This document shows positions 1,491-24,000 of a stretch of DNA of 24,000 bases, piece by piece. The stretch lies in contig NZ_JHXU01000004.1 in the NCBI RefSeq assembly GCF_000687815.1, forward strand, positions 28,366-52,365, given 5' to 3'. This DNA is from Mycoplasma elephantis ATCC 51980. Lineage in GTDB: Bacteria > Bacillota_I > Bacilli_A > Mycoplasmatales > Metamycoplasmataceae. Each line of letters starts with the position of its first letter. The stretch's first letter is position 1. Both the position numbers and the translations under genes were made by a program. Below the pieces are notes generated by a model. The model did not search any database, was not told the DNA's origin, and saw only the letters and a program-made list of their open reading frames with translations.

Positions 1491-1517
1491 AAAAAAACAG
1501 CTAAATGCTGTTTTTTT
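1491..1517. terminator. bidirectional rho-independent terminator shared by two convergent genes
   Basis: aaaaaaacagc (1491-1501), loop taaat, gctgttttttt (1507-1517). An A-run and a T-run flank a GC-containing stem. It sits between the stop at 1486-1488 (+) and the stop at 1516-1518 (-). Confidence 0.7.
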
Positions 1518-4500
1518 ATTCTTTAATGAATTCTCCATTTTGTTTTGTTGTTTCATTATTTAGAAAAGGATAATATCCATATGCAGGTGTTTCCCTTCAT
1601 TTTCCATTTTGATTTTGACTTGTTGCATCCAATATAACTATTCCAGAAATTAGTGATTTAGTAACAGATATTCCTCTATATGAATAAGTTAAATTAACAT
1701 TTAATTGTCAGTTTAGCGATTTGTTGTCATTTCATCTTAATGTTACATCGCAACCACTTCTTCCAACTAAATTTGATCTAGTTCCAAACACAGGAAGATC
1801 TCCATCTTTTTTGAAGATTTCAGTATATTTAATTTTCTTATTATCAAATGAATCAAATTTTCTTGCCTCTAATGGAGCGTTATTGCGATATTTTTCACGC
1901 GTAAAACTTCAATCATTAAATGTTAATGTCATATCAGGTAATATTGTATTTTTAATATATGTAAATTCTAATGGTTGTGGCGCTTGATTTGGATATTTAT
2001 CAAAATGAAAGTGTAATCCATATTCTGCAAGAAATGGAGTTCAAAGTGGAATCTCCATTTTTGCATAACCGAACTCAGTACTTTCGAATACACGATCAAT
2101 TACTTTTTTAGGGTTTTCTGTTCCTATGGATTTAGTGATTTCATATGAAGTATATTTTTTACCATTTATAGTTTTGCTTATTGTATATGTTAATTCTAAA
2201 ATTCTATCATTATCTTTAGGGTTAGTTTTTATGATTTCTATTTTATAATCATTACTTACTTTAGAATTAGTTCTTTCATCATAATAAGTAATATCGCTTG
2301 TTTTAATTTCGCTAGGATCATTTACATGATACATATTTTGATAAAATTCACCATTATTTAATAATTTTAATTGAATAGATTCAGCCATATCATTAACATC
2401 TTTTTGACCGATGTTTATAAATCCACTAATTAATATTGTTTTATTTTGTATAACAGTGTCTAAACCAGTTCCCCGAGATACTTGAAATGTAATTGATTTT
2501 GTACCTTCGGTGTCATTGTTGCTATTTGTATCTTTTTTAACTAATATAGAAACTTTTTGTTCATTTATAATGTTGTCTCATGATTGATTTGTTAAATCTT
2601 TATCTATATTTTTGTAATTATTATCGTAGGAAACAATTGAAGGTAAAACATTTTTATATTGTGAAGTTTCGCCATCTTTTATGCTATCCAAAACCTTTTT
2701 GACAGCTTGTTCATTTTCATGTTTAGCTTTAGTCTTAAAACCATTCAAATAAATTTGTTTATTTATAGATACTTTATCAATACCTTCGCCAGTAGAAATT
2801 TTTAATGTAATAATTTTTTGTCCTAATTCATTATTATTTTGTGATTCTATTTCGAATTTTGCACCAATATCTTCAAATTTAGAAATTAGTAAATTAGAAT
2901 TATTAAGTAGGTTATTAATTGAATCGAATATAACATCTTCGGGTAATTTATTTTCATTGTTTGGAGTTGTAGTATATTCATTTTCAATTTGCGAAATAAT
3001 GTTATTAACTAAATTTTCATTAATTTGTTTTTTTGTTGTAAAATCAATAATTTTTATTGTTTTTTCAATTGATTTAGCATTATTTTTTGTTACTTGTAAT
3101 TTGATTTCTTTATAACCATCACTATTTATTTCATCACCTAAAATAGTTATATTTACTGATTTAGGCGCTTTTAAATAATCAAGTAATGATAAATCAATAT
3201 CATTTGCTAAAAGCTCAAAATTTCTAAAATAATTAAGTTCGCTTGATTGTTTAGATTTATTGTTTATTGTCTTGTAAGTTTCTTTAATATTTCCTAAAAC
3301 TTCATTAACATCATTTTCATCAGCTACATCTTGAGATGTTTTAAAATCACTTATGGTAATTGTGTGTTGTTTTTCAATGTTGTCCTTTTTAATATTGAGA
3401 ACAATTGATTTTGTGCCATCATTATCATTGTGTGTTTGAGATAGGATAGAAATAACTACGTCTTGTTTTGTTGCTAGAGTTGTTAAGTTTAAATTAGTAT
3501 CAAGATCTAAATTAGCTAAGTCGGAATAATTAATATTACTTGGTAAACTATTTTTATTATTTTTTGTTTCATTCATGCTTGAAATCATTTTAATGGTTTC
3601 GTCAACAATGTTTGAATTATTTTTTTCGGTTGTTAAGTATCCAGTAATAGTAATTTGAACAGTCGCTTCTCCAACTCCTTTTGTTATTTTAAGTTGTATT
3701 GTTTTAGAACCTATATCATTATTGCTTACAATATTATTCGTGTCTATGATTATGTTTGTATCCTCAATTATTAAGCTCTTTATATCAAAATTAATATCAT
3801 TATCTAATTGAGTAATGTTTAAGTATGAAACTAAATTAGGTAACTTATCTTTATGATTAATTGTTATTTTATCATTTGCTGAAATTGCTTCCAATTTGTT
3901 TTTTATTTCTTCGACTATCTTTTTGTCTTTTTTGTTTTGTTCATCTTGATTAAATGCTGCAGTTGTCTTAAATCCTGAAAGAACTATTTGAACATCTTTT
4001 GTAACTTTATTTTCATCAGTTCCTGTAGTTACTTCGATTACAAAAGTTTTAGAGCCATTATCATTGTTGTTTGTTTCCGATTTAATAGTAAGAGTCACAC
4101 CATATTTTTTAGATATGCTATTTGCGCCATCTACAAGATTTTGATTTGCTAAACACTTATCTATTTCCGAGATACCATTGATTAAACTTTTATAATCAAT
4201 ATCACTTGGTAATTTATCGTTAACATTAATCATTTTTTCTGATTTTATTTCACCAATTGCTTGATCAACTTTTTTGTGGTTTTCATCTAATTCTTTTGTT
4301 CTATAACCCGATAATTTTAGTGTTGCATTTTTATTTACATTACCTTTAATTAATTGTATGTTGAATAATTTAAATCCATCTCCATTTGTTACATCAATTA
4401 TATTAATTTGAGTTATTTTTTTCGTATCAATGAAATCTCTTTGAATATCTAATTCAATATCTTTATCTATTTCATTAAGTGAATTATAAGAAACAAATTC

Positions 4501-6819
4501 TGACGTTTTTTCTTTATTATTCAAGGTTTTTTGTTCTTTTAATAAATTTATTGTTTCTTCCAAAACAGCTAAATCTTTATGATCTTGTTCTGTTTGAAAA
4601 CCAATAACTTTTAATTCTATATTTTTAGATTGGTTATTACATTTAATTGTTACATTAATTATTTTTGTACCATCTTCATTGCTTGTGCTCGTAAATGAAA
4701 TATTGGTGTTTGTTTGATTTGCAATATTTTGTAAATCAAATGTTGTGTCTTCATCAAGTAACTTTAAATCAGAATTATAAGGATTATCAATGTACTCATT
4801 TAAATGATTTTTAGTTATAGATTCCTTATTTTTAGAAATTAATTCTATAGCTTTATCAACCATTTTTTCATCATATTTATTATTTGTTAAGTAGTTAATA
4901 ATTTTTACGTAATCTGAATTCACGATAACTTGATCATTATTATTTCCGCATCTTATTTCAAATTGGACTAATTTATATCCATCATTATTTTCTTCTTTAA
5001 TTAATTTTATCGATTCATTACTATTGATTTTTAATGTGTTATTTGGATCGTTAATTGAATCAATAAGTAATTTCATACCCCCATTAAAAACTACATCAGT
5101 TGATTTTAAATCCGAATTTTTGGTTACATATTCAGTTAAAATCCCTTGTTTAATTGCGTTTGCTCTTTGTTCATTATCATGTTTTGCTTTTGTTTTGAAG
5201 CCATAAATAGTGACTTTTTTAATTTCTGATTCTACTAATGTTGCACCAGTGCCCTTACTAATTTTTACATTAATAATTTTTTTGCCATCATTAGTATCTT
5301 CAAACAATGAAACATTAAGATTAACTTTGTGCGCATTTATCACTCTAAGGAAATTTATGCTCGTTCCATTATTGGTTAATAAATCTACGTCATTAACTAT
5401 TGTTTTAACATCATAATTATTTCAATTTACATCATTTGGAAGTTTATCTATTGTTTTAGTTATACCTTCAGTACTTAAATTGTTGAAAGCCAAGTCTACT
5501 TGTTCTTTATTAAATTGTTTTTCAGTTTTATATCCTTTAATTTTAAATGTATGAGTGCTATCAGTGGTGCTGCCACAAACAATTTTTAGGTTAATTGTTT
5601 TTTGCCCATTTACATCATCATTTGTTTCATAATTTGTTGGGTCAAAAACAAGTTTTACATTATATTTTTGTTCAATTTCCCTTAAATTTGCATCTATATC
5701 ATCATCGAACTCTTTGTATAATGTATATTTAACACTAGATGGAAGATAATTTTTGTTTTTTAATGTTATAAATGATTGTAATTCTTTTTTTGCATTGGTA
5801 ATTGCTTGTAATTCATTTTCTTTAATATATTGTAAATTAGTTTTAAAACCAGATAATGTAATTATCTTATCTTCAAAAGCATTGTTTTTTTTCACATGTA
5901 TTTTGATTTTTTTTGTACCATTTTCATCATCATTTTCAAATTTACCTGTTTCATTCAAATCAACAACATATATTTCTACATTATGTTCTTCCTTTAATTT
6001 TTTAATGTCTACATTAGGCAAATCTAAATCAATACTTTTTACATCATTGTATATAACAAGTGATGGTTTAAGATTTTGGTTATTTCCACTTATTGTGTCA
6101 TCATTTATTAACGACAATACTTTTCTAACAATTTCTAAATCTTTAGCATTATTATTGTAACCATTAATTGTGACTGTAATTTCACTTTTGGCAAGAGGAT
6201 CATCATTTTTAGCGATTATTAGAACTACCTCTTTAGTTCCTTTTTCGTCGTTATTTTTTGATTCACCAATTTTAGTTTTTCCGGTAATTATAATTTGAAA
6301 TTTATCTTCAATTTCTTTAAATGTTGACAAACCTTTATTTAATTCCATATCATTTTTGAATTTATCGAACTCTTTATAATTAAATTCACTTGGTAAAAGA
6401 GTTGAATATTGTTTAGTTTTTATACCAACTAAATAACTAGATACATCATTTTTGATTTTGTTAATATATTTTTGGTTTTCAGATTCTTCCTTTTTAAAAT
6501 CTGTTAATGTTTTTTCAAATTTGTATGATTTATTTCCTGATACAACTGTACCAAATACTTTTAATTCACCAGTTAAGTTGTTAGGTTCTAATTTATGAAT
6601 GGTGTATGTGGCGTTATTTGGAAAATTTGAAAAAAATAAATCATCTTCCTTGATGTCTGATGGTAGTTTTTGTTCCTTTTTGTCTATTGGTTTAAATTCA
6701 AGTAAATTAACATCTACATTTTGTGCTCTTTTTAAAAATAAATATGTAGTTGCTATAGCTGTTATTGTTAATGGCGCTATTAGCAAAAACCCTAATAATA
6801 TTTTTCTTTTCATTCTCAT
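1516..6819 (-). CDS. very large (1767 aa) membrane-anchored surface protein with 13 divergent tandem ~100-aa modules and a distinct C-terminal domain
   Basis: ORF-track pieces 5422..6819, 2578..5343 and 2041..2388 are all in one frame (distances divisible by 3). They are separated only by TGA (forward tca at 5422, 2578, 2041). I translated the linking segments and 1516..2040 by hand and found no TAA or TAG until 1516-1518. The N-terminus MRMKRKILLGFLLIAPLTITAIATTYLFL is a signal anchor without a lipobox Cys. Confidence 0.85.
2420..6410 (-). repeat. protein-level tandem domain array (13 recognisable modules) inside the large surface protein
   Basis: A recurring module reads (K)LPS-x-(I/V)-x-Y ... 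D-x-D ... N(D/N)(D/N)-G-(T/S)-K-x-I-x-(L/V)-x-(I/V) ... (I/L)-x-(I/L)-x-G-(F/Y)-(K/R/Q)-T. Module ends include INGYNNN, LSGFKTN, IKGYKTE, IYGFKTK, VIGFQTE, LSGYRTK, LSGFKTT, ITGYLTT, ISDFKTS, IIDFTTK, LNGFKTK and ISGFINI. The copies have diverged and I saw no nucleotide-level identity. Confidence 0.7.
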
Positions 6820-9538: not shown

Positions 9539-10021
9539 ATGCATAAAGATGTTATTAAAGTTAAAGGGATTAAAAAACCTACAGGTGATATTTTATGTGT
9601 TTATTATTCTAGTTTGACAGAAAATACTCACACATTTGTTACAGAAAAATTAAAATTGAATTCAATTAGAATTCCTTATGAAAAAAAACTTGTTAATAAA
9701 GATGATAAACCAGTTGAAGGTACTATTCGTGTGGATAAAGATTACGTACTATTTTGTCCAACATTTTGTGGTGGTGGCGAATTTACTGAAGGAGCAGTGC
9801 CTAAAGAAGTTATTAAATTTTTAAATGTTAAAGAAAATAGGGATCACTGTCGTGGAGTAATCGCTTCTGGAAATACAAATTTTAATGAAACTTTTGCACT
9901 ATCGGGTCCTATTTTGAGTAAAAAATTAAATGTTCCACTTTTATATCAATATGAACTTAGAGGAACACAAAAAGATGTAGAAAATGTTAAAGACATATTA
10001 AATAAATTTTGAGGTAAATAA
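9539..10021 (+). CDS. nrdI: flavodoxin-like RNR maturation protein NrdI
   Basis: The ATG at 9539 lies 2 nt after the nrdF stop. The product has CVYYSSLTENTHTFV, an NrdI-type flavodoxin motif. It sits between nrdF and nrdE. An in-frame TGA at 10010 extends the ORF by W-G-K to TAA at 10019-10021. Confidence 0.88.
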
Positions 10022-14250: not shown

Positions 14251-14389
14251 TTCCCACTCCTTCCCACTATCTATACATATTAAACCACAAATATCCAAAA
14301 TAATAATTTTTTTATCAAATTTTTTGAAAAATAATGTGGTTCAAAATCTCATTTCACCATTTTTTAAAATGAAAATTTATAATAATTTA

Positions 14390-15541
14390 ATGAAAATTAA
14401 AGAATTTCTTTCACTTTTTGCATTTATGCCAATAATATTTACAACTTCATGCACATATTTTTTCAAAGAAAAGGAAAAAAGTGAGCAAATACCTAATGCT
14501 CCAATTTCTTCAAAACCTACATCAAAACCATTAGTAATAAATAAAGATAATAGTGCTATAAAAATAGCCCACTGGAATGTAAAAAATCAAAATGGTAAAA
14601 ATAATTTTAAAAATATAGCTTTAACTAATATTATTAATGCCGAAAATTTTGATATTGTCGGATTAACGGAAATTGATGATTTGCTTGGCGTTGTGTCATT
14701 AATAGATATTTTAAATAAAGCCAATTTTGAATATAAATGAGAATACAAAATATCCAATAAAGACTATACAGCTATTAAAAAAGGAACTCAACTAGAAATG
14801 AATTCAAAACAAAGGGAACATGTTGGAATAATCTATAAAAGTAGTAAGGTTAAACTTATTGCGGATACATTATATGAAAACATTCCATGAAGTAATTTGT
14901 TAGATTTAAATAATCCTAGTGCCGATAAGTACTCATATATTCGTCCTCCATATGGAGCAAAGTTTTTAGACTTAAACACAAATCAAGATTTTACTTGTGT
15001 ATTTGCCCATTTTGATTCTCCGGGAATAGCGAAAGAAAATGAGGACGGTGCTAAAAAATTTAATAGTGATTTTGGAGATATGGGTGCACAAGAAGCTAAT
15101 GAAGCGCTCAAGATTAATGGTGTAATGAAATTTTATGATGCTTGAGATGGGGATAATAATGAACTAATTTTTATGGGTGATACAAATATAAAATTAGGAA
15201 AACAAAATTTAGTATTTAAAAATATTATTGATGATAAGTATACATTTTACTCTGAAGATAATGAACAATGGAAAACATCGCTTAAAACATCAGTTTTTGG
15301 TGAATATTCTCAACCTTATGACAAAATAATTTATAAAGGCGATGCAAAAATAACAAATCCAGGTTTGATAAAAATATATGATTCATTAAAAAATAAATAT
15401 ATAGATCAAAAATGGATTGATGAAGTAATAGCTAGTAAAAATCCCCCACCTAAAAACCCTGTTATTTACCCATATACATTTATTTCAGATCATTGTCCAA
15501 TTTATTTAACTATAAATTTAGATAAAAACGATAAAAATTAA
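14390..15541 (+). CDS. membrane nuclease lipoprotein, endonuclease/exonuclease/phosphatase (DNase I-like) family, MnuA-like
   Basis: The signal peptide plus lipobox reads MKIKEFLSLFAFMPIIFTTS|C. Four ORF-track pieces share one frame and are joined by TGAs at 14738, 14888 and 15143. EEP motifs are IAHWNV, IVGLTEI, FAHFDSPG, FMGDTNI and ISDHCPIY. Alternative starts lie at 14369 (ATG) and 14324 (TTG). Confidence 0.8.
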
Positions 15542-16876: not shown

Positions 16877-16953
16877 GGAGAAGTAGCTCAGTTTGGCAGA
16901 GCGCTACGTTTGGGACGTAGTGGTCGCAGGTTCAAATCCTGTCTTCTTCACCA
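16877..16953 (+). tRNA. tRNA-Pro (anticodon TGG)
   Basis: Acceptor GGAGAAG/CTTCTTC. Anticodon stem CTACG/CGTAG with loop TTTGGGA. T-loop GGTTCAAATCC. CCA is encoded. Confidence 0.9.
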
Positions 16954-16959
16954 TTTTAT

Positions 16960-17036
16960 GGGGGGGTAGCTCACCTGGCTAGAGCGCCTGCCTTGCACGC
17001 AGGAGGTAGAGGGTTCGAGTCCCTTCCTCTCCACCA
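16960..17036 (+). tRNA. tRNA-Ala (anticodon TGC)
   Basis: Anticodon stem CCTGC/GCAGG with loop CTTGCAC. The G3:U70 identity pair is present in acceptor GGGGGGG/CCTCTCC. T-loop GGTTCGAGTCC. CCA is encoded. Confidence 0.9.
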
Positions 17037-17039
17037 TTT

Positions 17040-17116
17040 GGCACTGTAGCTCAGTTGGTTAGAGCATCCGGTTCATACCCGGAAGGTCAAGAGTTCGATC
17101 CTCTTTGGTGCTACCA
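17040..17116 (+). tRNA. tRNA-Met, elongator (anticodon CAT)
   Basis: Anticodon stem TCCGG/CCGGA with loop TTCATAC. The 1:72 position is a G:U wobble pair rather than a mismatch, and the anticodon stem lacks the three consecutive G:C pairs of an initiator. Its position matches the Met slot of the known mollicute and Bacillus cluster order. Confidence 0.8.
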
Positions 17117-17138
17117 TTTGGATATATAACAGCATACT

Positions 17139-17214
17139 GGACCCATAGCTCAATGGTTAGAGCACCCGGCTCATAACCGGTAGGTTGCAGGTTCAAGTCC
17201 TGCTGGGTCCACCA
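17139..17214 (+). tRNA. tRNA-Ile2 (genomic anticodon CAT, presumed lysidine-modified)
   Basis: Acceptor GGACCCA/TGGGTCC with anticodon loop CTCATAA. The Ile rather than Met assignment rests on position in the conserved Pro-Ala-Met-Ile-Ser-fMet-Asp-Phe order, not on the sequence alone. Confidence 0.65.
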
Positions 17215-17215
17215 T

Positions 17216-17308
17216 GGGCAATTACCCAAGCCCGGTTGAAGGGACTAGTCTTGAAAACTAGCAGGGGCTTCACGGCCCGCGGGGGTTCGAATCCCTCATT
17301 GCCCGCCA
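17216..17308 (+). tRNA. tRNA-Ser (anticodon TGA), class II with long variable arm
   Basis: Acceptor GGGCAAT/ATTGCCC. Anticodon stem CTAGT/ACTAG with loop CTTGAAA. The long variable arm is GGGGCTTCACGGCCCGC. 93 nt with CCA encoded. Confidence 0.9.
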
Positions 17309-17344
17309 TTTATCTATTTTTATAGATACCAATAACTTTCACGT

Positions 17345-17421
<77 letters not shown>

Positions 17422-17422
17422 T

Positions 17423-17499
17423 GGTCCAGTGGTAAAGTGGTTTAATACGCCTCCCTGTCACGGAGGAGATCGCGGGTTCAATTCCCGTCTGGACCGCCA
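17423..17499 (+). tRNA. tRNA-Asp (anticodon GTC)
   Basis: Acceptor GGTCCAG/CTGGACC. Anticodon stem CCTCC/GGAGG with loop CTGTCAC. CCA is encoded. Confidence 0.9.
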
Positions 17500-17500
17500 T

Positions 17501-17576
17501 GGCTCTGTAGCTCAGTTGGTAGAGCAACGGACTGAAGCTCCGTGTGTCGCTGGTTCGATTCCTGCCGGAGCCACCA
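17501..17576 (+). tRNA. tRNA-Phe (anticodon GAA)
   Basis: Acceptor GGCTCTG/CGGAGCC. Anticodon stem ACGGA/TCCGT with loop CTGAAGC. T-loop GGTTCGATTCC. CCA is encoded. Confidence 0.9.
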
Positions 17577-17587
17577 TATGATGAAAA

Positions 17588-17650
17588 TCGCCTATTAAGG
17601 CTTTTTTTATAAAATTTACACTTTTCTTATTTTGAAGTGTAAATTTTTTT
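17588..17650 (+). terminator. tandem terminators after the tRNA cluster
   Basis: A small hairpin gcct-atta-aggc is followed by ttttttt (17590-17608). A strong 12-bp hairpin follows: aaatttacactt (17612-17623) pairs with aagtgtaaattt (17635-17646), then a T-run. Confidence 0.75.
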
Positions 17651-17750
17651 ACAATTTATTTTCTTTTTAACAATTTTGTTTACATTTTAATTACTATATA
17701 AATTTATAATTTATATGGTGGTAATAATACCACTAAATAAAGGAGATAAA

Positions 17751-19220
17751 ATGAAATACAAAAAATTATGCAGTGTTTTAATACCTGTAATATCTATTGG
17801 GATAACATCAAGTGTAATATCGTGTTCAATTGATGAAGAAGCAATTAAAAATTTTGAAAAAAATAATGAAGCTTTAATAAATGTTGATTTAGCCAAACTT
17901 GATAATGATATTTTAAAAAATCTCGAAAAAGCAGAAAATGAATATTTATCTTTGTCTAAAAATGAGCAAGATAATAAAAAAGATATTGGTGTTAAAATTC
18001 AAACTATTAAAGGAATTAAAAACTCACATGATTCATACTTAAAATCATATAAGAGTCTTTTAGAAATGGAAGATGAAAAACTTGAAAATGAATATAATGC
18101 ACGAGGTTACAAAATAGTTTATAAAGCAATTGAAGCTTTTGAAAAATTTAATAGCCTTGACGATAATACAAAAAATCTTTTAATTAAGAATTTACCTAAT
18201 TCATATTCAAGTATTAATGATGCTAAAAAGGATCTAGAAAGACGTGAAAATCTTTTAATTAATTTACAAAAAAAAGACTATCCAGTTAAAGTACCAAGTC
18301 AAGCAACATACAAAAAAATAAATGAACTTTTAGAATATGTAAAATCATTATCTGGTAAGACAATGGCGGAAAAGGTTGTTGCTATTTCAGAAAAATTCTT
18401 AGGATTTACTTATGTGCCAGATAAAATGATTGGTTCAATAGAAAAAGGGGTTGAAGAAATTCTTGTTCTTGATATATTGGGTGTTGACTGTTTTACCTTT
18501 TTAGATTATACTGTTGCCTTAGCAATGTCAAAAGATATTGATGAATTTAAAGAAAATGTTGCTAAAGTAAGATATATAGATGGACGTGTTGATTACACTA
18601 CTCGTAAACATTTCTTTACTGATTGAGGTCATGAAAATATTAAAATTGCAAATAATGCAGTTGATTTAATGGCTGAAGATGCTAAGAAAATAGCAAATGA
18701 CAAAAAATTGATTATTAATATTAAGAAAAATATTAATGCTAAAAAAGAAGTCGACAAGAAAGTAACAGAGTTTTGATTACCTGGAGTAAGAACAACAGAT
18801 CGTGAATTTGATGCAATTAAATTTGAAAAAGATCACAGAATACTAGATGAAAAATTCATTATGGATAACTTTAAAGAAGGTGATTTTGTAATGGTTGGAA
18901 CCAACCTAGATGGTCTCGATGTTACACATTGCGGAATTTTAATCTTTAAAGAGGGTCCGGTTTATGAATATGATGAAAATGGTGTTGAAAAACGTGATGA
19001 AAAAGGCAATCCAATAGTTAAAAAAGATAAAGATGGAAAAGAAGTAAAAGCTTTAAAACCATTTTATAGAAATGCTAAATGAAATAAACATGTTTTAGAT
19101 GTTGATTTACTATACTACATGCGTGATAGAAATTGAGATACAAAAAACAAGAAGTGATATGAAAAACCTAAAGTTCCATATATGTTATTCTACCGTGTAG
19201 AAGAATCATTAGATGATTAA
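17751..19220 (+). CDS. surface lipoprotein with a C-terminal AmiA/DUF1460-like (NlpC/P60-fold) putative N-acetylmuramoyl-L-alanine amidase domain
   Basis: The RBS aaaggag lies 5 nt upstream of the ATG. The lipoprotein signal is MKYKKLCSVLIPVISIGITSSVIS|C. The frame is continuous through TGAs at 18624, 18774, 19080, 19134 and 19155 to TAA at 19218-19220 (489 aa). The C-terminal half has LDILGVDCFTFLDYTVALA, VRYIDGRVDYTTRKHFFTDW and GDFVMVGTNLDGLDVTHCGI. As I recall them, these match the Cys and His blocks of PF07313. Confidence 0.6.
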
Positions 19221-20101
19221 TGAATATGATAAATAATAATATTACAGATTTAGATACAGAAAAAAGAAATAGAAATACAAAAAATTTATCTTCAAGTTCA
19301 ACATTAGAAATAATTGAAATGATAAATAATGAAGATAAAAAAGTTGCATATGAAGTAATTAAAAATAAAGAAAGTATAGCCAAAGTTATTGATATAGCAT
19401 ATGAATGCCTAAAAAATAAAAAAGGCAGAATTATTTATATAGGCGCGGGAACTAGTGGAAGAATAGGAGTACTAGATGCTACCGAAATTTGACCTACGTT
19501 TGGTGTAAAAAATAAAATTATAGGCCTTATAGCTGGTGGTAGAAAAGCTCTTTTTGAAGCAGTTGAAAAAGCTGAAGATAATATACAATTTGCAATTGAT
19601 GATTTAAATAGTGTAAATATTTCATCAAATGATGTAGTTATCGGAATTACTGCTTCAGGTAGAACACCTTATGTAATAGGTGGCCTAAAATATGCAAAAT
19701 CGATTGAGGCAAAAACAGTTCTTATATGTAATTCTATGCCTAGAGAAAAAAACAACTTTATAGATCAAATTATTTGTGTTTCAACAGGGGCTGAAGTAAT
19801 AGCGGGTTCTACAAGAATGAAAGCAGGGACTAGTCAAAAAATGGTATGCAATATGATTTCAAGTGCGGTGATGACAAAATTAGGTTATGTCGAAAGTAAT
19901 TATATGATTAATCTAATACCAACAAATTATAAACTTGAAGAACGTTGCAAAAACATGATTAAGGATTTAACTAATGCTTCTTATGACCAAATTGAAAATT
20001 GCTTCAATCTTACAAGGAATGTTAAATTAACACTTTTGATGTTACAAAAAAATATTTCAAAAGAAGAAGCGGAAAAAATTTATAAGGAGTTATATGGATA
20101 A
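19220..20101 (+). CDS. murQ: N-acetylmuramic acid 6-phosphate etherase MurQ
   Basis: 293 aa, with a TGA at 19490 read as Trp. It aligns by eye with E. coli MurQ over its whole length: STLE...IN.EDK.V, GR.IY.GAGTSGR.G.LDA.E, PT.GVK, GLIAGG, VE.AED, DVV.GI.ASGRTPYVI.GL.YA, GAEV..GS.RMKAGT.QK.V.NM.S. The start ATG overlaps the upstream stop (TAATG). Confidence 0.88.
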
Positions 20102-20405
20102 AACAAAAATTGAACAGTCGGCTTTTGAAATAATCTCATATTCAGGAGCAGCAAAGGCATTATTTTCTGAAGCAATAGATTATTTAATCAAAAATGATGT
20201 TGTAAAAGCTACTGAAAAAATTAAAGAGGGTAAAGAAGAATTAACAAAAGTTCATAAAGCACATTTTGAATTAATTTCATGCGAAGCTAAAGGAACCGAA
20301 CTTGATTTTAGTCTTTTATTAACCCATGCAGAAGATCAATTCATGTCAGCGGAAAACGCAATGTTTTTAGCTGAAAAAATGCTTTTATTTAAAAAAGCAA
20401 ATTAG
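20094..20405 (+). CDS. PTS EIIA component, lactose/cellobiose (Chb) family
   Basis: 103 aa in the three-helix-bundle EIIA pattern: IISYSGAAKAL, HKAHFELI, and the phosphorylation His in LLLTHAEDQFMS (compare ChbA LVHAQDHLMT). It overlaps the murQ 3' end by 8 nt (ATGGATAA). Confidence 0.85.
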   Translation: MDKTKIEQSAFEIISYSGAAKALFSEAIDYLIKNDVVKATEKIKEGKEELTKVHKAHFELISCEAKGTELDFSLLLTHAEDQFMSAENAMFLAEKMLLFKKAN

Positions 20406-21157
20406 TTATATGATGATGTTTGTAAATACTGAAAATTATCTTCATCATTAATTAAATACTCAAAAATTTTAATGTAAAATGTTACAACTTTAAGTAATGA
20501 ATCGGTCGAATAAAGTCTAAGACCACCCTTAAAATCTTTAACATTTTCAACATGATTAAAAACATTAATTTTATCTTTAATCACTTTATCATTTGGAATA
20601 AAACTACTTGATAACATAATTTTTGCCTTAGTAATTTTTATAAGATCAAGTATTCATGTGTGTTGAAGTGATAATGAGTTAATTATGACTAAATCATTAT
20701 TTGTTAGAAGCTTACTTAAACCAATTTGATCGTATTTACTTTCAGGAGTAAAAACACACTTATTTAATCTTTGTAGTTTACGGGCAAAATCTAAATTATT
20801 TATATATGAGCCTGAAACACCCACAAATAATATTTTGTGAGAATTTGAAATTAAATTAGCCGCATCTTTGATAACTTGATTATAAATATTGCCTTCATAT
20901 TCTTTAGATATTGATTGGTTATGAACAAAACAAAGTTCATTAAAGTTATTAAAATCACATTTTTTAACAAATTTAGAAATAGCGGCAGATGATACATTTA
21001 ATAACTGTGCCAAGTCTTTTGATTTATAAATCTTAGTTGAATTTTTTACTAATTTTAATATCTCATTAGCTATATGTGCATTTGTTATCGATGAATTTCT
21101 ACGAATTGCATTTAATTTCATTAAATATGTGTATTTACTATTATCAACATTTTTCAC
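20402..21157 (-). CDS. RpiR/MurR-family transcriptional regulator (HTH + SIS domains)
   Basis: Pieces 20654..21157 and 20402..20617 share one frame and are joined through TGA (forward tca 20654-20656). The N-terminal HTH is ITNAHIANEIL...KDLAQLLNVSSAAISKFVKKCDFNNFNEL, which resembles MurR. A SIS block KILFVGVSGSY follows. The longest ORF starts with GTG at 21157. The ATG at 21121 (MKLNAIRRN...) is an equally plausible start. Confidence 0.8.
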
Positions 21158-21193: not shown

Positions 21194-21787
21194 GTGTTAA
21201 CCAAAAAATTTACAAAAGTGTTTTGATTATCTATGCTAGCAACAATTTTTATGATTGTTTCAATTTTATTGTTTGTTCCTAGTGTAATTTATGTTGGAAA
21301 ATCAAAGCAAATTCAACATTTTAACTTTGATAATATTAATTTTATTATCTTAGTTGCTATTCAAAATATATTTATTTTATTACTTTTAAAATATTTAATT
21401 ACAAATGCGATTAAAGATTTAAAAGATAAAACTTGAGCAAGTAACAAAGATACAAAACTCAAAACTATCATGTTTTATTTTGTATCATCTATTATTTTAT
21501 TATTAGTTATTGCATCAAGTGTATTTATTTCATTTGGAGTTGTGGTTTTTGAAGGGGATCTAAAACCATTAGGAACCATAACTACTGTTGATGGTAAAGA
21601 GGTTCATACAATCTTTTCAGATGAAGTAGTTAGAAACGCTATGACTGTAAATGATAAAATTAAATATATTTTATTTAGTTTTATATTTGCATACTTTTTA
21701 GTTATCTTTATATTACTTATAACAAAAATAAGTTTAGTAATAAAAAATACTGTAACAAACAAAAAACAAATAAAGGAAGCAATCTAA
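21194..21787 (+). CDS. uncharacterised 4-TM membrane protein, first gene of the PTS operon
   Basis: A GTG start lies 5 nt after the GGAG RBS. The ATG at 21192 hits a stop after two codons. Pieces 21233..21436 and 21470..21787 are in the same frame and are joined through the TGA at 21434. The 197-aa product has four hydrophobic segments. Its stop overlaps the EIIB start (TAATG). Confidence 0.65.
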
Positions 21788-22107
21788 TGAATGTTCTTTT
21801 AATTTGTTCTGGTGGAATGTCAACGCATATATTGATTAGTTCACTAGAAAAAGAAGCAAAGCAATTAGGAATACCTTTTAAAGCCAATGCTATTGGTGTT
21901 ACAGAAATTGAGGAATATCCAAATAATGATTACCAAATTATTTTGGTTGCCCCTCAAATTAGATTCAAGTTTATTGAGTTTGAAAAATTTGCAAAACAAA
22001 AAAACAAATTAATATATCAAATTCAACCAATGGAATACAATCCAGTAGGAGCATCAAAACTCCTTAAAAATGTAAAAAAAATTATGGAGGAAAACAATGT
22101 CATCTAA
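21787..22107 (+). CDS. PTS EIIB component, lactose/cellobiose (Chb) family
   Basis: 106 aa. The active-site Cys motif is MNVLLICSGGMSTHIL (compare ChbB LFCSAGMSTSLL). It also has ILVAPQIRF (compare LLGPQIAY). Confidence 0.88.
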   Translation: MNVLLICSGGMSTHILISSLEKEAKQLGIPFKANAIGVTEIEEYPNNDYQIILVAPQIRFKFIEFEKFAKQKNKLIYQIQPMEYNPVGASKLLKNVKKIMEENNVI

Positions 22108-23581
22108 CCAAAAGGTTAAAAAAACTAGTGTTGGTATGAATATTCTTAAATGAATTGAACGTACCTTTATGCCAATAATTAGTAAGATTAGTGATAACCG
22201 CTACATAAATGCTATTCGTAATGGTATGGTAGCCGTAATCCCTATATTGCTAATTGGTTCAATGTTTCTTATTTTATTTTTCTTCCCTATTGGAAAAAGT
22301 GAAACATTAGGAATTAATGTTTTACTACCAATTGATGGCGGTCGTTGAGCAAGATTCTTTATGTTACCATACCGTCTTACATTTCCAATGATGGGATTCT
22401 TTGTAGTTATAGGAATAGCTAGGTCTTTAGCTCGTAATTACAAACTAGATGATCAACAAGGCGTATTCATTGCTCTTATTGCTTATCTAATTTCAATAGT
22501 TGGTCCAACATATAGTTCAATTGGTAATCCTGCATTTACATCAGGTTCATTCGGGTCAGCAACTATTTTTGGCGGAATTATTGTTTCTATTATTTCAATT
22601 GAAATATTTAGATTATGTATTAAATATAGAATAATGATTCGTTTACCTAAATCTGTTCCAGAAGTTGTTGCAAAACCATTTAATGCAATTATTCCAATGC
22701 TTTTTGTAATGGTTCCTGCAGTTCTTTTATTTAATGTATTAAAATTCGATATTCACAAATTTGCATCATTATTATTACAACCAATCCAAGGATTAGTTGC
22801 TGGAAATAACTTTTTTGGCTTTATAGTTGTAATATTATTTGTTATGTTATTATGAATTGCTGGTATTCATGGAATGGCAATAGTTGGTGCTGTTGCTCGT
22901 CCATTTTGACTTATCGCTATTGATGATAACTTATCATTAACTGAAACACTTGGTAGAAAATCAATAACAGCTGCTGATGGAGCTAATATTTTGGTGGAAC
23001 CATTCTTTCAATGATTTGTTTGAATCGGTGGAGCTGGAGCTACATTAGGTCTTTTAATTGTTATGTTATTTATTGCTAAATCAAAATACATAAGAGCTAT
23101 TACATATCCTTCTATTGTTCCAGGTATATTCAACATAAATGAACCAGTTATATTTGGTTACCCACTTGTTTTAAATCCTATTTTAGCAATTCCTGCCATT
23201 TTAGCCCCTCTTACAATGGGTACATTATCATTTATTGCAATGAAACTTAATTTAGTAAATGTACCTATTATAGTTGTTGGGTGAACATTACCTTCACCAG
23301 TTGGTGCGGTGCTTGCAACGAATTTAGATTGAAGAGCATTAGTTCTTTGTTTATTAATGATCGCTGTATCATGCGTAATATGATGGCCATTTGCTAAAAT
23401 GTATGATAATGTATTATTAAAACAAGAAATCGAAGAAGAAGTTCAATTACGTAAAGAAAACGCAGAAAAAGAAAATATCATCTTTAATGAAGAAGAAACA
23501 AGAGCACAAGTTTCAAAAGAATTCCATTCAAGAAGTATTTTTAAACGTAATAAAAAACAAGTAAAAAACATAGAAGCTTAA
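22097..23581 (+). CDS. PTS EIIC permease, lactose/cellobiose (Chb) family
   Basis: The ATG at 22097 follows the ggagg RBS and overlaps the EIIB gene by 11 nt. A single frame runs through nine TGA codons and joins pieces 22361.., 23063.. and 23399.. (494 aa). Features are multiple TM segments, the LWIAGIHG motif typical of this EIIC family, and a charged C-terminal tail. Confidence 0.88.
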
Positions 23582-23598: not shown

Positions 23599-23931
23599 AT
23601 GCCAGAATGATTAGTATATAGTTTATTAGTATTAACCTTGATAATTGGATATTTGTTAGCAACACTTATTGATCGATACACAAAGTTTTTTAAAAGAATA
23701 AGTTCGTGAATTATTGTTCCATTACCTTTTATAGTTTTGTTTTTGATAGGTATACCCCTATTATTATTTAAGGTTGATTTTGATATTATATTTTACTGTT
23801 GTTCTTTCCCCTTTTTGTTTTTTTGTGGCGTATCTATAGCTGTATATATCGAAAGATATATTATTTGAAGAGAACGCAAGCTTGAAAAAGCAAAAATAGC
23901 ACAAGGTGTGCAAAATAAAGATAAAAAATAA
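23599..23931 (+). CDS. uncharacterised small 3-TM membrane protein
   Basis: An ATG follows the aaaggga RBS. The frame is continuous with TGAs at 23608, 23707 and 23866 read as Trp. The 110-aa product is MPEWLVYSLLVLTLIIGYLLATLIDRY...IIVPLPFIVLFLIGIPLLLF...FYCCSFPFLFFCGVSIAVYI, followed by a basic tail. The standard-code ORF track misses it. Confidence 0.55.
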
Positions 23932-23945
23932 CGAAAGGAATTTAA

Positions 23946-24000
23946 ATGCTAGGTATTTCAATTTATCCTGATAAACAGGATAAACAAGAAATTATAAAAT
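23946..24000 (+). CDS. 5' end of a DUF871/MupG-like (6-phospho-N-acetylmuramidase family) gene, cut by the window edge
   Basis: The RBS gaaagga precedes an ATG at 23946. Only 18 codons are visible: MLGISIYPDKQDKQEIIK. The N-terminal (M)LGIS(I/V)Y(P/L) pattern is what I recall for DUF871 proteins. The call is tentative because of the short length. Confidence 0.35.
   Translation, partial: MLGISIYPDKQDKQEIIK

Follow-up and report, generated by a model that had tools for sequence, protein, structure and literature searches.

Mycoplasmas are the textbook wall-less bacteria, and any system for peptidoglycan fragments that they carry can act only on the walls of others. What, then, does a mycoplasma do with a gene for a predicted peptidoglycan amidase that runs directly into murQ? 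The question is raised by a gene, here called amiA-like, in a 24,000-nucleotide (nt) stretch of Mycoplasma elephantis ATCC 51980, a species from elephants (contig NZ_JHXU01000004.1); we refer to this stretch as the window. The answer that we consider likely is that the product is a lipid-anchored, outward-facing amidase of the AmiA/DUF1460 family that carries out the extracellular first step of eating other bacteria's peptidoglycan fragments, and that M. elephantis probably feeds on the walls of its neighbours.

The gene depends on the genetic code in which it is read. Outside a cluster of transfer RNA (tRNA) genes, the window is ~21-32% guanine plus cytosine (G+C). With the standard bacterial code (table 11) its long genes are interrupted by TGA codons, and the region 17751-19220 splits into open reading frames (ORFs) of 303 and 73 amino acids (aa). 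With code 4 (TGA = Trp) the same region is a single ORF of 489 aa, in which TGA stands in frame five times, at aa 292, 342, 444, 462 and 469. That code 4 is correct follows from the codon at 292, which supplies the Trp of the motif HFFTDW: all 63 family members in the alignment have Trp at this position. The translation matches, with 100% identity, an NCBI entry for Mycoplasma elephantis labelled 'N-acetylmuramoyl-L-alanine amidase-like domain-containing protein'. An alignment of the orthologues shows that all begin MK.KK at the equivalent ATG. At the 3' end, the stop codon TAA (19218-19220) shares its final A with the ATG of the next gene (19220-19222), which yields the TAATG (19218-19222) already described in an earlier, sequence-only reading of this DNA. 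That reading had named the downstream gene murQ, and the score of its product, far above the cut-off of NF003915 (Table 1), bears this out. By their overlapping stop and start codons the two genes appear to be a translationally coupled pair. The TAATG junction recurs in Mycoplasma sp. NEAQ87857; in the remaining species 3-16 nt separate the two genes.

The C-terminal domain belongs to the family that its motifs had suggested. It matches PF07313 with an E value of 4.7e-37 and 127.9 bits against a gathering cut-off of 27, with aa 212-402 aligned to profile positions 2-171 of 202, and a phmmer search of PDB sequences returns only DUF1460 structures, namely 2p1g, 4h4j/4q5k/4q68 (AmiA of Bacteroides uniformis) and 2im9. 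An AlphaFold model of the domain, built on 63 homologues (mean predicted local distance difference test, pLDDT, 86.5; predicted template modelling score, pTM, 0.86), fits the DUF1460 fold as well: the only significant PDB matches found by Foldseek are the solved DUF1460 entries 2im9, 4q68, 4h4j, 4q5k and 2p1g (E 2e-11 to 3e-9, probability 1.0, target-normalised TM 0.65-0.69), and the next match has an E value of 0.2. The sequence blocks quoted in the sequence-only reading (LGVDCFTFLDYTVALA, RYIDGRV, HFFTDW, GLDVTHCGI and the charged YDENGVEKRDEKGNPIVKKDKDGKEVK) are all found in the translated protein, and the Cys and His blocks coincide with the invariant catalytic positions of the family.

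The active site itself is largely intact. All 17 invariant columns of the 63-sequence alignment are retained, including Tyr221, Asp246-Cys247, Arg274-Tyr275, Arg285, His287, Asp291-Trp292, Asp390 and His393. Cys247 and His393, which are invariant in 63/63 sequences, align with VDC and AHMG of 4h4j. In the model, Cys247 opens a helix (residues 247-258); of two consecutive strands on either side of an inserted hairpin, the first (384-403; also delimited as 391-403) carries His393 and the second (433-442) Asn441. The predicted layout of Cys247, His393 and Asn441 is the papain/NlpC-P60 arrangement. Tyr221 (also 63/63) precedes the Cys by 26 residues. It is probably the equivalent of Tyr41 in B. 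uniformis AmiA, which according to PMC8586454 hydrogen-bonds the lactyl group of the ligand in PDB 4Q5K. The protein departs from most of its family at the third triad residue, where 60 of the 63 sequences carry His (LLHAP or RHAS) and all mycoplasma copies carry Asn (YRNA motif; Asn441 in M. elephantis). Papain uses Asn at this position. Since the remainder of the active site is kept in lineages that are only 32-50% identical to one another, we read Asn441 as a clade-specific variant and not as a loss of function.

The predicted location of the domain follows from the N-terminus. The signal peptide (MKYKK...SSVIS-C25) has a basic n-region (K2, K4, K5), a hydrophobic core and a lipobox, and the signal sequence up to the lipobox reads MKYKKLCSVLIPVISIGITSSVIS, followed by Cys25. 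The lipobox VIS-C had been recognised in the sequence-only reading; a Cys at aa 22-27 after the hydrophobic stretch is kept in all nine Mycoplasmopsis-type orthologues aligned. Between the signal peptide and the catalytic domain lies what had been taken for a K/E/N-rich helical spacer of ~190 aa. Its helical character stands, and its length and its role as a mere linker do not. The region spans aa 26-176, or 151 residues (K 15%, N 13%, L 13%, E 11%). In a full-length AlphaFold model built from a four-sequence alignment it forms helices with a pLDDT of ~87-93 over most of the region and 74-93 across all blocks, and because these helices are predicted with confidence it appears to be a folded domain more than a linker. 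Apart from M. elephantis, sequence homologous to this domain is found only in M. californica and a single uncultured relative; in the remaining orthologues a far shorter linker takes its place. The AmiA-like protein is also the fastest-evolving member of the gene cluster described below (50% identity between M. elephantis and M. californica, compared with 56-82% for the others), a divergence that is typical of exposed mycoplasma lipoproteins.

Two charged stretches within the catalytic domain had been singled out as possible additions, and they differ in kind. The first, K-rich and located at 18630-18860 (aa 294-370), has the same net length as the matching part of 2p1g in the alignment and is an ordinary part of the family fold. 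It is not lineage-specific, because it corresponds to the internal insertions that shape the binding pocket of AmiA, as described in PMC4600125. The second stretch, YDENGVEKRDEKGNPIVKKDKDGKEVK (aa 407-433), was rightly suspected of being lineage-specific. It lies in a true insertion (aa 403-437) that the alignments place only in M. elephantis and M. californica and that is modelled as short paired strands with a pLDDT of 80-95. The AmiA-like protein of M. hafezii (L087 4764-6005) carries another charged insertion, KLDDKGNVVKNDKGEPVKVKTDKKLTDGNGNV, at a different site in the domain. Its 'D.KG.P.VK' character is that of M. elephantis aa 407-433, and similar charged hairpins may have been gained independently in the two proteins.

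The amiA-like gene is the first of a ten-gene cluster that continues with murQ, the IIA, IIB and IIC genes of a phosphotransferase system (PTS), genes for two membrane proteins and a MurR/RpiR regulator, mupG and anmK (Table 1). Several adjacent genes overlap by 1-11 nt, as expected of one transcription unit. MurQ, the N-acetylmuramic acid (MurNAc) 6-phosphate etherase, scores 295.4 bits with the NCBIfam model NF009222 (cut-off 255) and ~217-220 bits with PDB entries 4s12, 4lzj and 1nri; with the equivalog TIGR00274 it reaches 298.4 bits, slightly below the cut-off of 302. IIA, IIB and IIC are separate proteins of the lactose/cellobiose family, not a MurP-type glucose-family EIIBC. After its last membrane segment, the IIC protein has a charged K/E-rich tail of ~50 aa (23430-23581), which a 434-aa homologue from Caldibacillus is without. 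The Pfam matches of the regulator are slightly below cut-off and its NCBIfam MurR matches are weak; it lies beside the cluster in every species examined. Neither small membrane protein has a Pfam or NCBIfam match. All Mycoplasmopsis clusters examined have the 197-aa type in the same place, the 110-aa type follows IIC in 6/6 amiA-like-carrying clusters, and the two may be accessory parts of the transporter.

The window ends within mupG, and the codons it holds encode MLGISIYPDKQDKQEIIK, the N-terminus of the M. elephantis MupG protein P0123. For the DNA beyond we used Logan contig L086 from the same organism, which is identical to the window over 23755-24000. There, mupG (361 aa) and anmK (377 aa) are followed by genes for thymidine kinase and by ptsI. 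AnmK (L086 1267-2400) scores 441.7 bits with the NCBIfam equivalog NF007148 (cut-off 387), and MupG scores 367 bits with the structure 1x7f. The presence of mupG and anmK in the cluster points independently to anhydro-muropeptides, the substrate of B. uniformis AmiA.

Table 1. Features of the amiA-like gene and its cluster. Positions are those of the window unless a residue range (aa) or another locus (L) is given.
Feature	Position	Strand	Remarks
Motif AAATATTTYACAAAA sites	L001 9887-9901; L003 9879-9893; L088 4923-4937; L093 ~2996-3045; window ~17639-17657		
Perfect GC-containing palindrome GTGGTAATAATACCAC	17718-17733	+	just 5' of ribosome-binding site
Ribosome-binding site AAGGAG	17741-17746	+	4 nt 5' of ATG 17751, read from sequence
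amiA-like lipoprotein gene	17751-19220	+	489 aa, code 4, five TGA = Trp
Lipoprotein signal peptide	17751-17825	+	aa 1-25, lipobox V-I-S-C, Cys25 at 17823-17825
N-terminal all-helical domain	17835-18278	+	aa 29-176, AlphaFold model
AmiA-like/DUF1460 catalytic domain	18279-19217	+	aa 177-489, PF07313
Tyr221	18411-18413	+	catalytic-domain key residue
Cys247	18489-18491	+	catalytic-domain key residue
His393	18927-18929	+	catalytic-domain key residue
Asn441	19071-19073	+	catalytic-domain key residue
Cys block LGVDCFTFLDYTVALA	aa 243-258	+	translated ORF
RYIDGRV block	aa 274-280	+	translated ORF
HFFTDW block	aa 287-292	+	translated ORF
His block GLDVTHCGI	aa 388-396	+	translated ORF
Charged beta-hairpin insertion	18957-19061	+	aa 403-437, between His and Asn strands
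murQ, MurNAc-6-phosphate etherase	19220-20101	+	293 aa, NF003915 338.9 bits vs 168
PTS IIA, lactose/cellobiose family	20094-20405	+	PF02255 E 3e-25; 8-nt overlap with murQ end
MurR/RpiR-type regulator, HTH_6 + SIS	20402-21157	-	start GTG 21157 or ATG 21121
197-aa membrane protein, four hydrophobic segments	21194-21787	+	between IIA and IIB
PTS IIB, lactose/cellobiose family	21787-22107	+	PF02302 E 2e-12
PTS IIC permease, lactose/cellobiose family	22097-23581	+	PF02378 E 2.6e-49; TIGR00410 294 bits vs 236
110-aa membrane protein, three hydrophobic segments	23599-23931	+	after IIC
mupG 5' end (GH170/DUF871 6-phospho-glycosidase)	23946-24000	+	18 codons, then window ends

The cluster is not peculiar to M. 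elephantis. With an AmiA-like lipoprotein gene at its head it is also found in M. californica, M. lipofaciens, M. hafezii, M. gallinacea and NEAQ87857, and the chromosomal neighbourhoods of these five clusters differ. Further AmiA-like proteins occur in M. anatis, in uncultured relatives and in a further Mycoplasmopsis species, where the 80,450-nt contig that encodes the protein also encodes a MupG homologue named M. ciconiae. In NEAQ87857, nagB, nagA and an rpiR-like gene (L093 383-2995) divergently adjoin the cluster, which physically links it to the catabolism of N-acetylglucosamine (GlcNAc) 6-phosphate. A reduced version is seen in Mycoplasma sp. Ms02 (L092 5311-10212), where rpiR, IIA, a membrane protein, IIB, IIC, mupG and anmK, adjoined by pgi, occur together, and where amiA-like, murQ and the small membrane protein after IIC are missing. 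Because amiA-like and murQ are jointly present in six clusters and jointly absent in Ms02, the two behave as a pair. Five of the six clusters with amiA-like contain an intact anmK; in two independent assemblies of M. californica (L001 17546-18700; same region of L002) the gene has a frameshift near codon 60 and is split or uncalled, and the rest of the cluster is intact. A donor lineage for amiA-like was sought, and none could be named. The closest non-mollicute relatives (P0242 and P0243, from uncultured organisms in Logan) are wall-anchored Gram-positive surface proteins of ~700 aa with two tandem DUF1460 domains, the usual RHAS motif and a C-terminal LPxTG sortase signal; the next-closest are scattered among Proteobacteria at 36-40% identity.

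From the family membership, fold, catalytic residues, lipoprotein signal and conserved gene order we infer the enzyme's activity and substrate, which sugar the PTS phosphorylates, which bond the MupG-like enzyme cuts and how the system is regulated, as follows. Since the mycoplasma cell is wall-less, the substrates must come from other bacteria. Soluble muropeptides, most likely GlcNAc-1,6-anhydroMurNAc-peptides released by the lytic transglycosylases of neighbours, would reach the mycoplasma surface, where the amidase (Cys247-His393-Asn441) would cut the lactyl-L-Ala bond to give the stem peptide and the free disaccharide. This is the reaction that PMC4600125, citing Xu et al. 2014, gives for B. 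uniformis AmiA, which converts GlcNAc-1,6-anhydroMurNAc-peptide to disaccharide and stem peptide. A PTS of the lactose/cellobiose/chitobiose type would then import the disaccharide and phosphorylate C6 of the non-reducing GlcNAc; it is this end that would be phosphorylated, because anhydroMurNAc has no free C6 hydroxyl. Transporters of this family take up beta-linked disaccharides, chitobiose among them. Inside the cell, the MupG-like enzyme of glycoside hydrolase family GH170 would separate GlcNAc 6-phosphate (GlcNAc-6P) from anhydroMurNAc, AnmK would convert the latter to MurNAc 6-phosphate (MurNAc-6P), and MurQ would turn this into GlcNAc-6P and D-lactate. NagA and NagB would bring GlcNAc-6P into glycolysis, with the MurR/RpiR protein regulating the cluster. 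In this scheme no enzyme of the cluster is left without a task, and AnmK would receive the intracellular anhydroMurNAc that it requires. A precedent for the glycosidase step comes from Lacticaseibacillus paracasei, where a GH170 enzyme and a lactose/cellobiose-type PTS have been genetically implicated in the cleavage of diacetylchitobiose-6P (PMC12791066).

Several observations weigh against this pathway. The third triad residue is the Asn described above. The PTS proteins score under the cellobiose and chitobiose equivalog cut-offs, and these scores do not fix their specificity. For AnmK, structures of fungal levoglucosan kinase give a slightly higher score (231 bits) than do the bacterial AnmKs of solved structure (205 and 170 bits). 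Ms02 retains anmK without amiA-like or murQ, and two M. californica assemblies combine a frameshifted anmK with an intact amiA-like. nagA, nagB and the gene for HPr were not located in M. elephantis. Finally, the sole biochemically characterised MupG cleaves MurNAc-6P-GlcNAc (PMC6262408), a route for which AnmK is not needed and which implies a different disaccharide.

This last point leads to the alternative that survives best, although we consider it unlikely: the pathway would be the same and the substrate would have a reducing end, either GlcNAc-MurNAc-peptide released by host lysozyme, an enzyme abundant on the mucosae that these species colonise, or MurNAc-GlcNAc-type fragments made by glucosaminidases. 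The PTS would then import MurNAc-GlcNAc as MurP does in Staphylococcus aureus, MupG would be a true 6-phospho-muramidase, and AnmK would be accessory. The known MupG activity speaks for this, as do the strong match of the M. elephantis protein to 1x7f, which is a putative MupG orthologue according to PMC6262408, and the broken anmK that M. californica tolerates. The intact anmK in the other five clusters argues for the anhydro substrate, and so does the transporter, which is of the lactose/cellobiose and not the MurP type. Furthermore, the unphosphorylated sugar set free by this route would have to be handled by a GlcNAc/MurNAc kinase, which the Caldibacillus cluster has and the M. elephantis cluster has not, and the characterised member of the amidase family is specific for the anhydro form, as stated in PMC4600125.

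We regard it as improbable that the protein serves mainly immune modulation and not nutrition, destroying NOD1/NOD2 agonists of co-resident bacteria by taking the stem peptides off muropeptides such as tracheal-cytotoxin-like fragments, much as host PGLYRP2 does. NOD1 sensing requires the peptide and NOD2 the muramyl-peptide linkage. The predicted surface location, marked by the signal peptide and the conserved lipobox Cys, would suit this role, and, as with exposed antigens, its sequence diverges faster than those of the other cluster proteins; the predicted reaction would also part peptide from sugar (PMC4600125). The tight and repeated coupling to catabolic genes (the murQ overlap, PTS, mupG, anmK and nagAB) suggests instead that the sugar product is the point. 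In addition, free iE-DAP (gamma-D-glutamyl-meso-diaminopimelic acid) peptides are still sensed by NOD1. An immune role is compatible with the scavenging amidase and not exclusive of it.

Very little favours a bacteriolytic weapon that attacks the intact walls of neighbours and kills them for nutrients: many NlpC/P60 enzymes are wall lysins (PMC4600125) and the protein is predicted to face outward, but according to that source B. uniformis AmiA and YkfC are strictly specific for peptidoglycan degradation products, and the AmiA insertions and all invariant residues are retained in the M. elephantis protein. A Pfam scan finds no SH3b, LysM or other wall-binding domain in it, and a membrane-tethered enzyme has a short reach. 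Just as implausible is a catalytically dead protein, in which the change from His to Asn, present in all mycoplasma copies, would leave a muropeptide-binding lipoprotein (a receptor or sensor) or a relic of a walled ancestor, since Cys, His and the other invariants are conserved across at least nine mollicute lineages at ~32-50% identity, a pattern of purifying selection, papain-fold enzymes function with Asn at the third position, PTS transporters use no binding proteins, and a cluster that is patchy and sits in different genomic places fits a passive relic poorly.

The scavenging pathway can be set beside several known systems. B. uniformis AmiA (BACUNI_02947; PDB 4H4J, 4Q5K, 4Q68), the founding characterised member of DUF1460/PF07313, is like the M. 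elephantis protein in Pfam family, predicted fold, catalytic Cys and His, and in the predicted reaction and its predicted place outside the cytoplasm, although the two share only 18-19% identity over the Foldseek structural alignment. The M. elephantis protein differs in its predicted lipid anchor, the extra 150-aa helical N-terminal domain, the 35-aa charged hairpin, a C-terminal insertion and the Asn in place of the third His. Its host has no wall, so it could serve only scavenging and not self-recycling, and, unlike B. uniformis AmiA, it is tied genetically to a PTS/MupG/AnmK/MurQ catabolic cluster. The mupG-murQ-murP-murR operon of S. aureus (Kluj et al. 2018, PMC6262408) shares with the M. 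elephantis cluster the uptake of a disaccharide by a PTS, its splitting by a GH170 enzyme, MurQ and MurR-type control. It uses MurP where M. elephantis has lactose/cellobiose-family IIA, IIB and IIC; the M. elephantis cluster adds anmK and a dedicated surface amidase, whereas in S. aureus the amidase step is performed by the autolysin Atl on the bacterium's own wall.

In Escherichia coli recycling (AmpG, AmpD, NagZ, AnmK, MurQ) an amidase likewise strips the stem peptide, and anhydroMurNAc passes through AnmK and MurQ to GlcNAc-6P. PMC4600125 describes AmpD as a cytoplasmic zinc amidase that acts after import by AmpG; in M. elephantis a cysteine amidase would act before import, and a PTS with a 6-phospho-glycosidase is proposed to replace AmpG and NagZ. 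The chb cluster of L. paracasei (GH170 ChbE; PMC12791066) resembles ours in pairing a lactose/cellobiose-family PTS with a MupG-family enzyme, one that genetics implicates in the cleavage of a GlcNAc-6P-beta-1,4 disaccharide, but it has no murQ, anmK or amidase, and its substrate is diacetylchitobiose and not a peptidoglycan fragment. Spiroplasma genomes carry murP and murQ, so wall-less Mollicutes can encode MurNAc catabolism (PMC3762197), in that case by a monosaccharide route only, without amidase, mupG or anmK. Tannerella forsythia scavenges MurNAc from other bacteria (PMC7670621), although there the sugar goes into building its own wall. The closest non-mollicute gene set, which is uncharacterised, is that of Caldibacillus debilis (IIC-IIB / IIA-mupG-BadF-type kinase-anmK-murQ / rpiR). 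Its proteins are 56% (MupG), 42% (AnmK), 43% (MurQ) and 37% (IIC) identical to those of M. elephantis; an AmiA-like gene and both small membrane proteins are missing from this set, and a sugar kinase and a GH4 enzyme are additional.

Two candidate regulatory elements lie upstream of amiA-like. The palindrome GTGGTAATAATACCAC occurs once in the window and in 0 of 100 shuffles, and M. californica has GTGGTATTAATACCAC at the equivalent place (L001 ~9961-9976); it is a candidate operator or hairpin of the 5' untranslated region. The second element, the motif AAATATTTYACAAAA, belongs to a TGTAAAATATTTTACA-like palindrome. In M. californica, M. lipofaciens and M. gallinacea each ~20-kb locus contains it exactly once, in each case ~100-120 nt upstream of the amiA-like start. 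NEAQ87857 has two copies of the motif and M. elephantis a degenerate one. We consider it a candidate MurR/RpiR operator or promoter element. Most of the short inverted repeats upstream of amiA-like were dismissed, as they look like chance matches in AT-rich DNA. A sigma-70 promoter scan found 36 sites where 43 were expected, which is uninformative in DNA of this composition. Directly upstream of the cluster is a group of nine tRNA genes (16877-17576), a local G+C peak of 0.39, with Pro, Ala, Met, Met, Ser, Met, Asp and Phe tRNAs on the + strand, three of them for Met. The terminator scan called none after it, and we claim neither a promoter nor a terminator. M. californica has the same arrangement of obg, gap and the cluster, and other species carry the cluster elsewhere.

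Elsewhere in the window, a 1767-aa ORF (code 4) at 1516-6819 on the - strand has an N-terminal hydrophobic anchor and, by eye, N/K/D/E-rich repeat modules of ~100 aa; its product is presumably a surface protein. At 14369-15541 (+) is a predicted lipoprotein (...FTTSC...) with a sub-threshold match to the endonuclease/exonuclease/phosphatase family (E ~3e-4), which may be a surface nuclease or phosphatase.

Parts of this picture are already known: the domain is labelled in databases, and the amidase family and the recycling enzymes are established. In the literature searched we found no paper that links Mollicutes with DUF1460, mupG or anmK. What appears to be new is that known parts have been rearranged into an extracellular-first scavenging pathway in wall-less organisms, together with the putative lipid anchor, helical domain and Asn triad. 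We propose, more tentatively, that some Mycoplasmopsis-type mycoplasmas are dedicated cross-feeders on what other bacteria release in wall turnover, and that the surface amidase, chitobiose-type PTS, GH170 6-phospho-beta-N-acetylglucosaminidase, AnmK and MurQ make up a route that has been described for no organism, one that as a side effect would degrade muramyl-peptide immune agonists such as tracheal cytotoxin in mixed infections.

The prediction is directly testable, as the protein is small and should be soluble once recoded, and tracheal-cytotoxin-type anhydro-muropeptides and mutanolysin digests are standard preparations. If it is true, mycoplasmas would have a nutritional link to the mucosal microbiota, and DUF1460 amidases and GH170 enzymes would gain a new role, for the amidases in extracellular scavenging as opposed to self-recycling. 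In mixed infections, the pool of immunostimulatory muropeptides would then be changed by these mycoplasmas as well.

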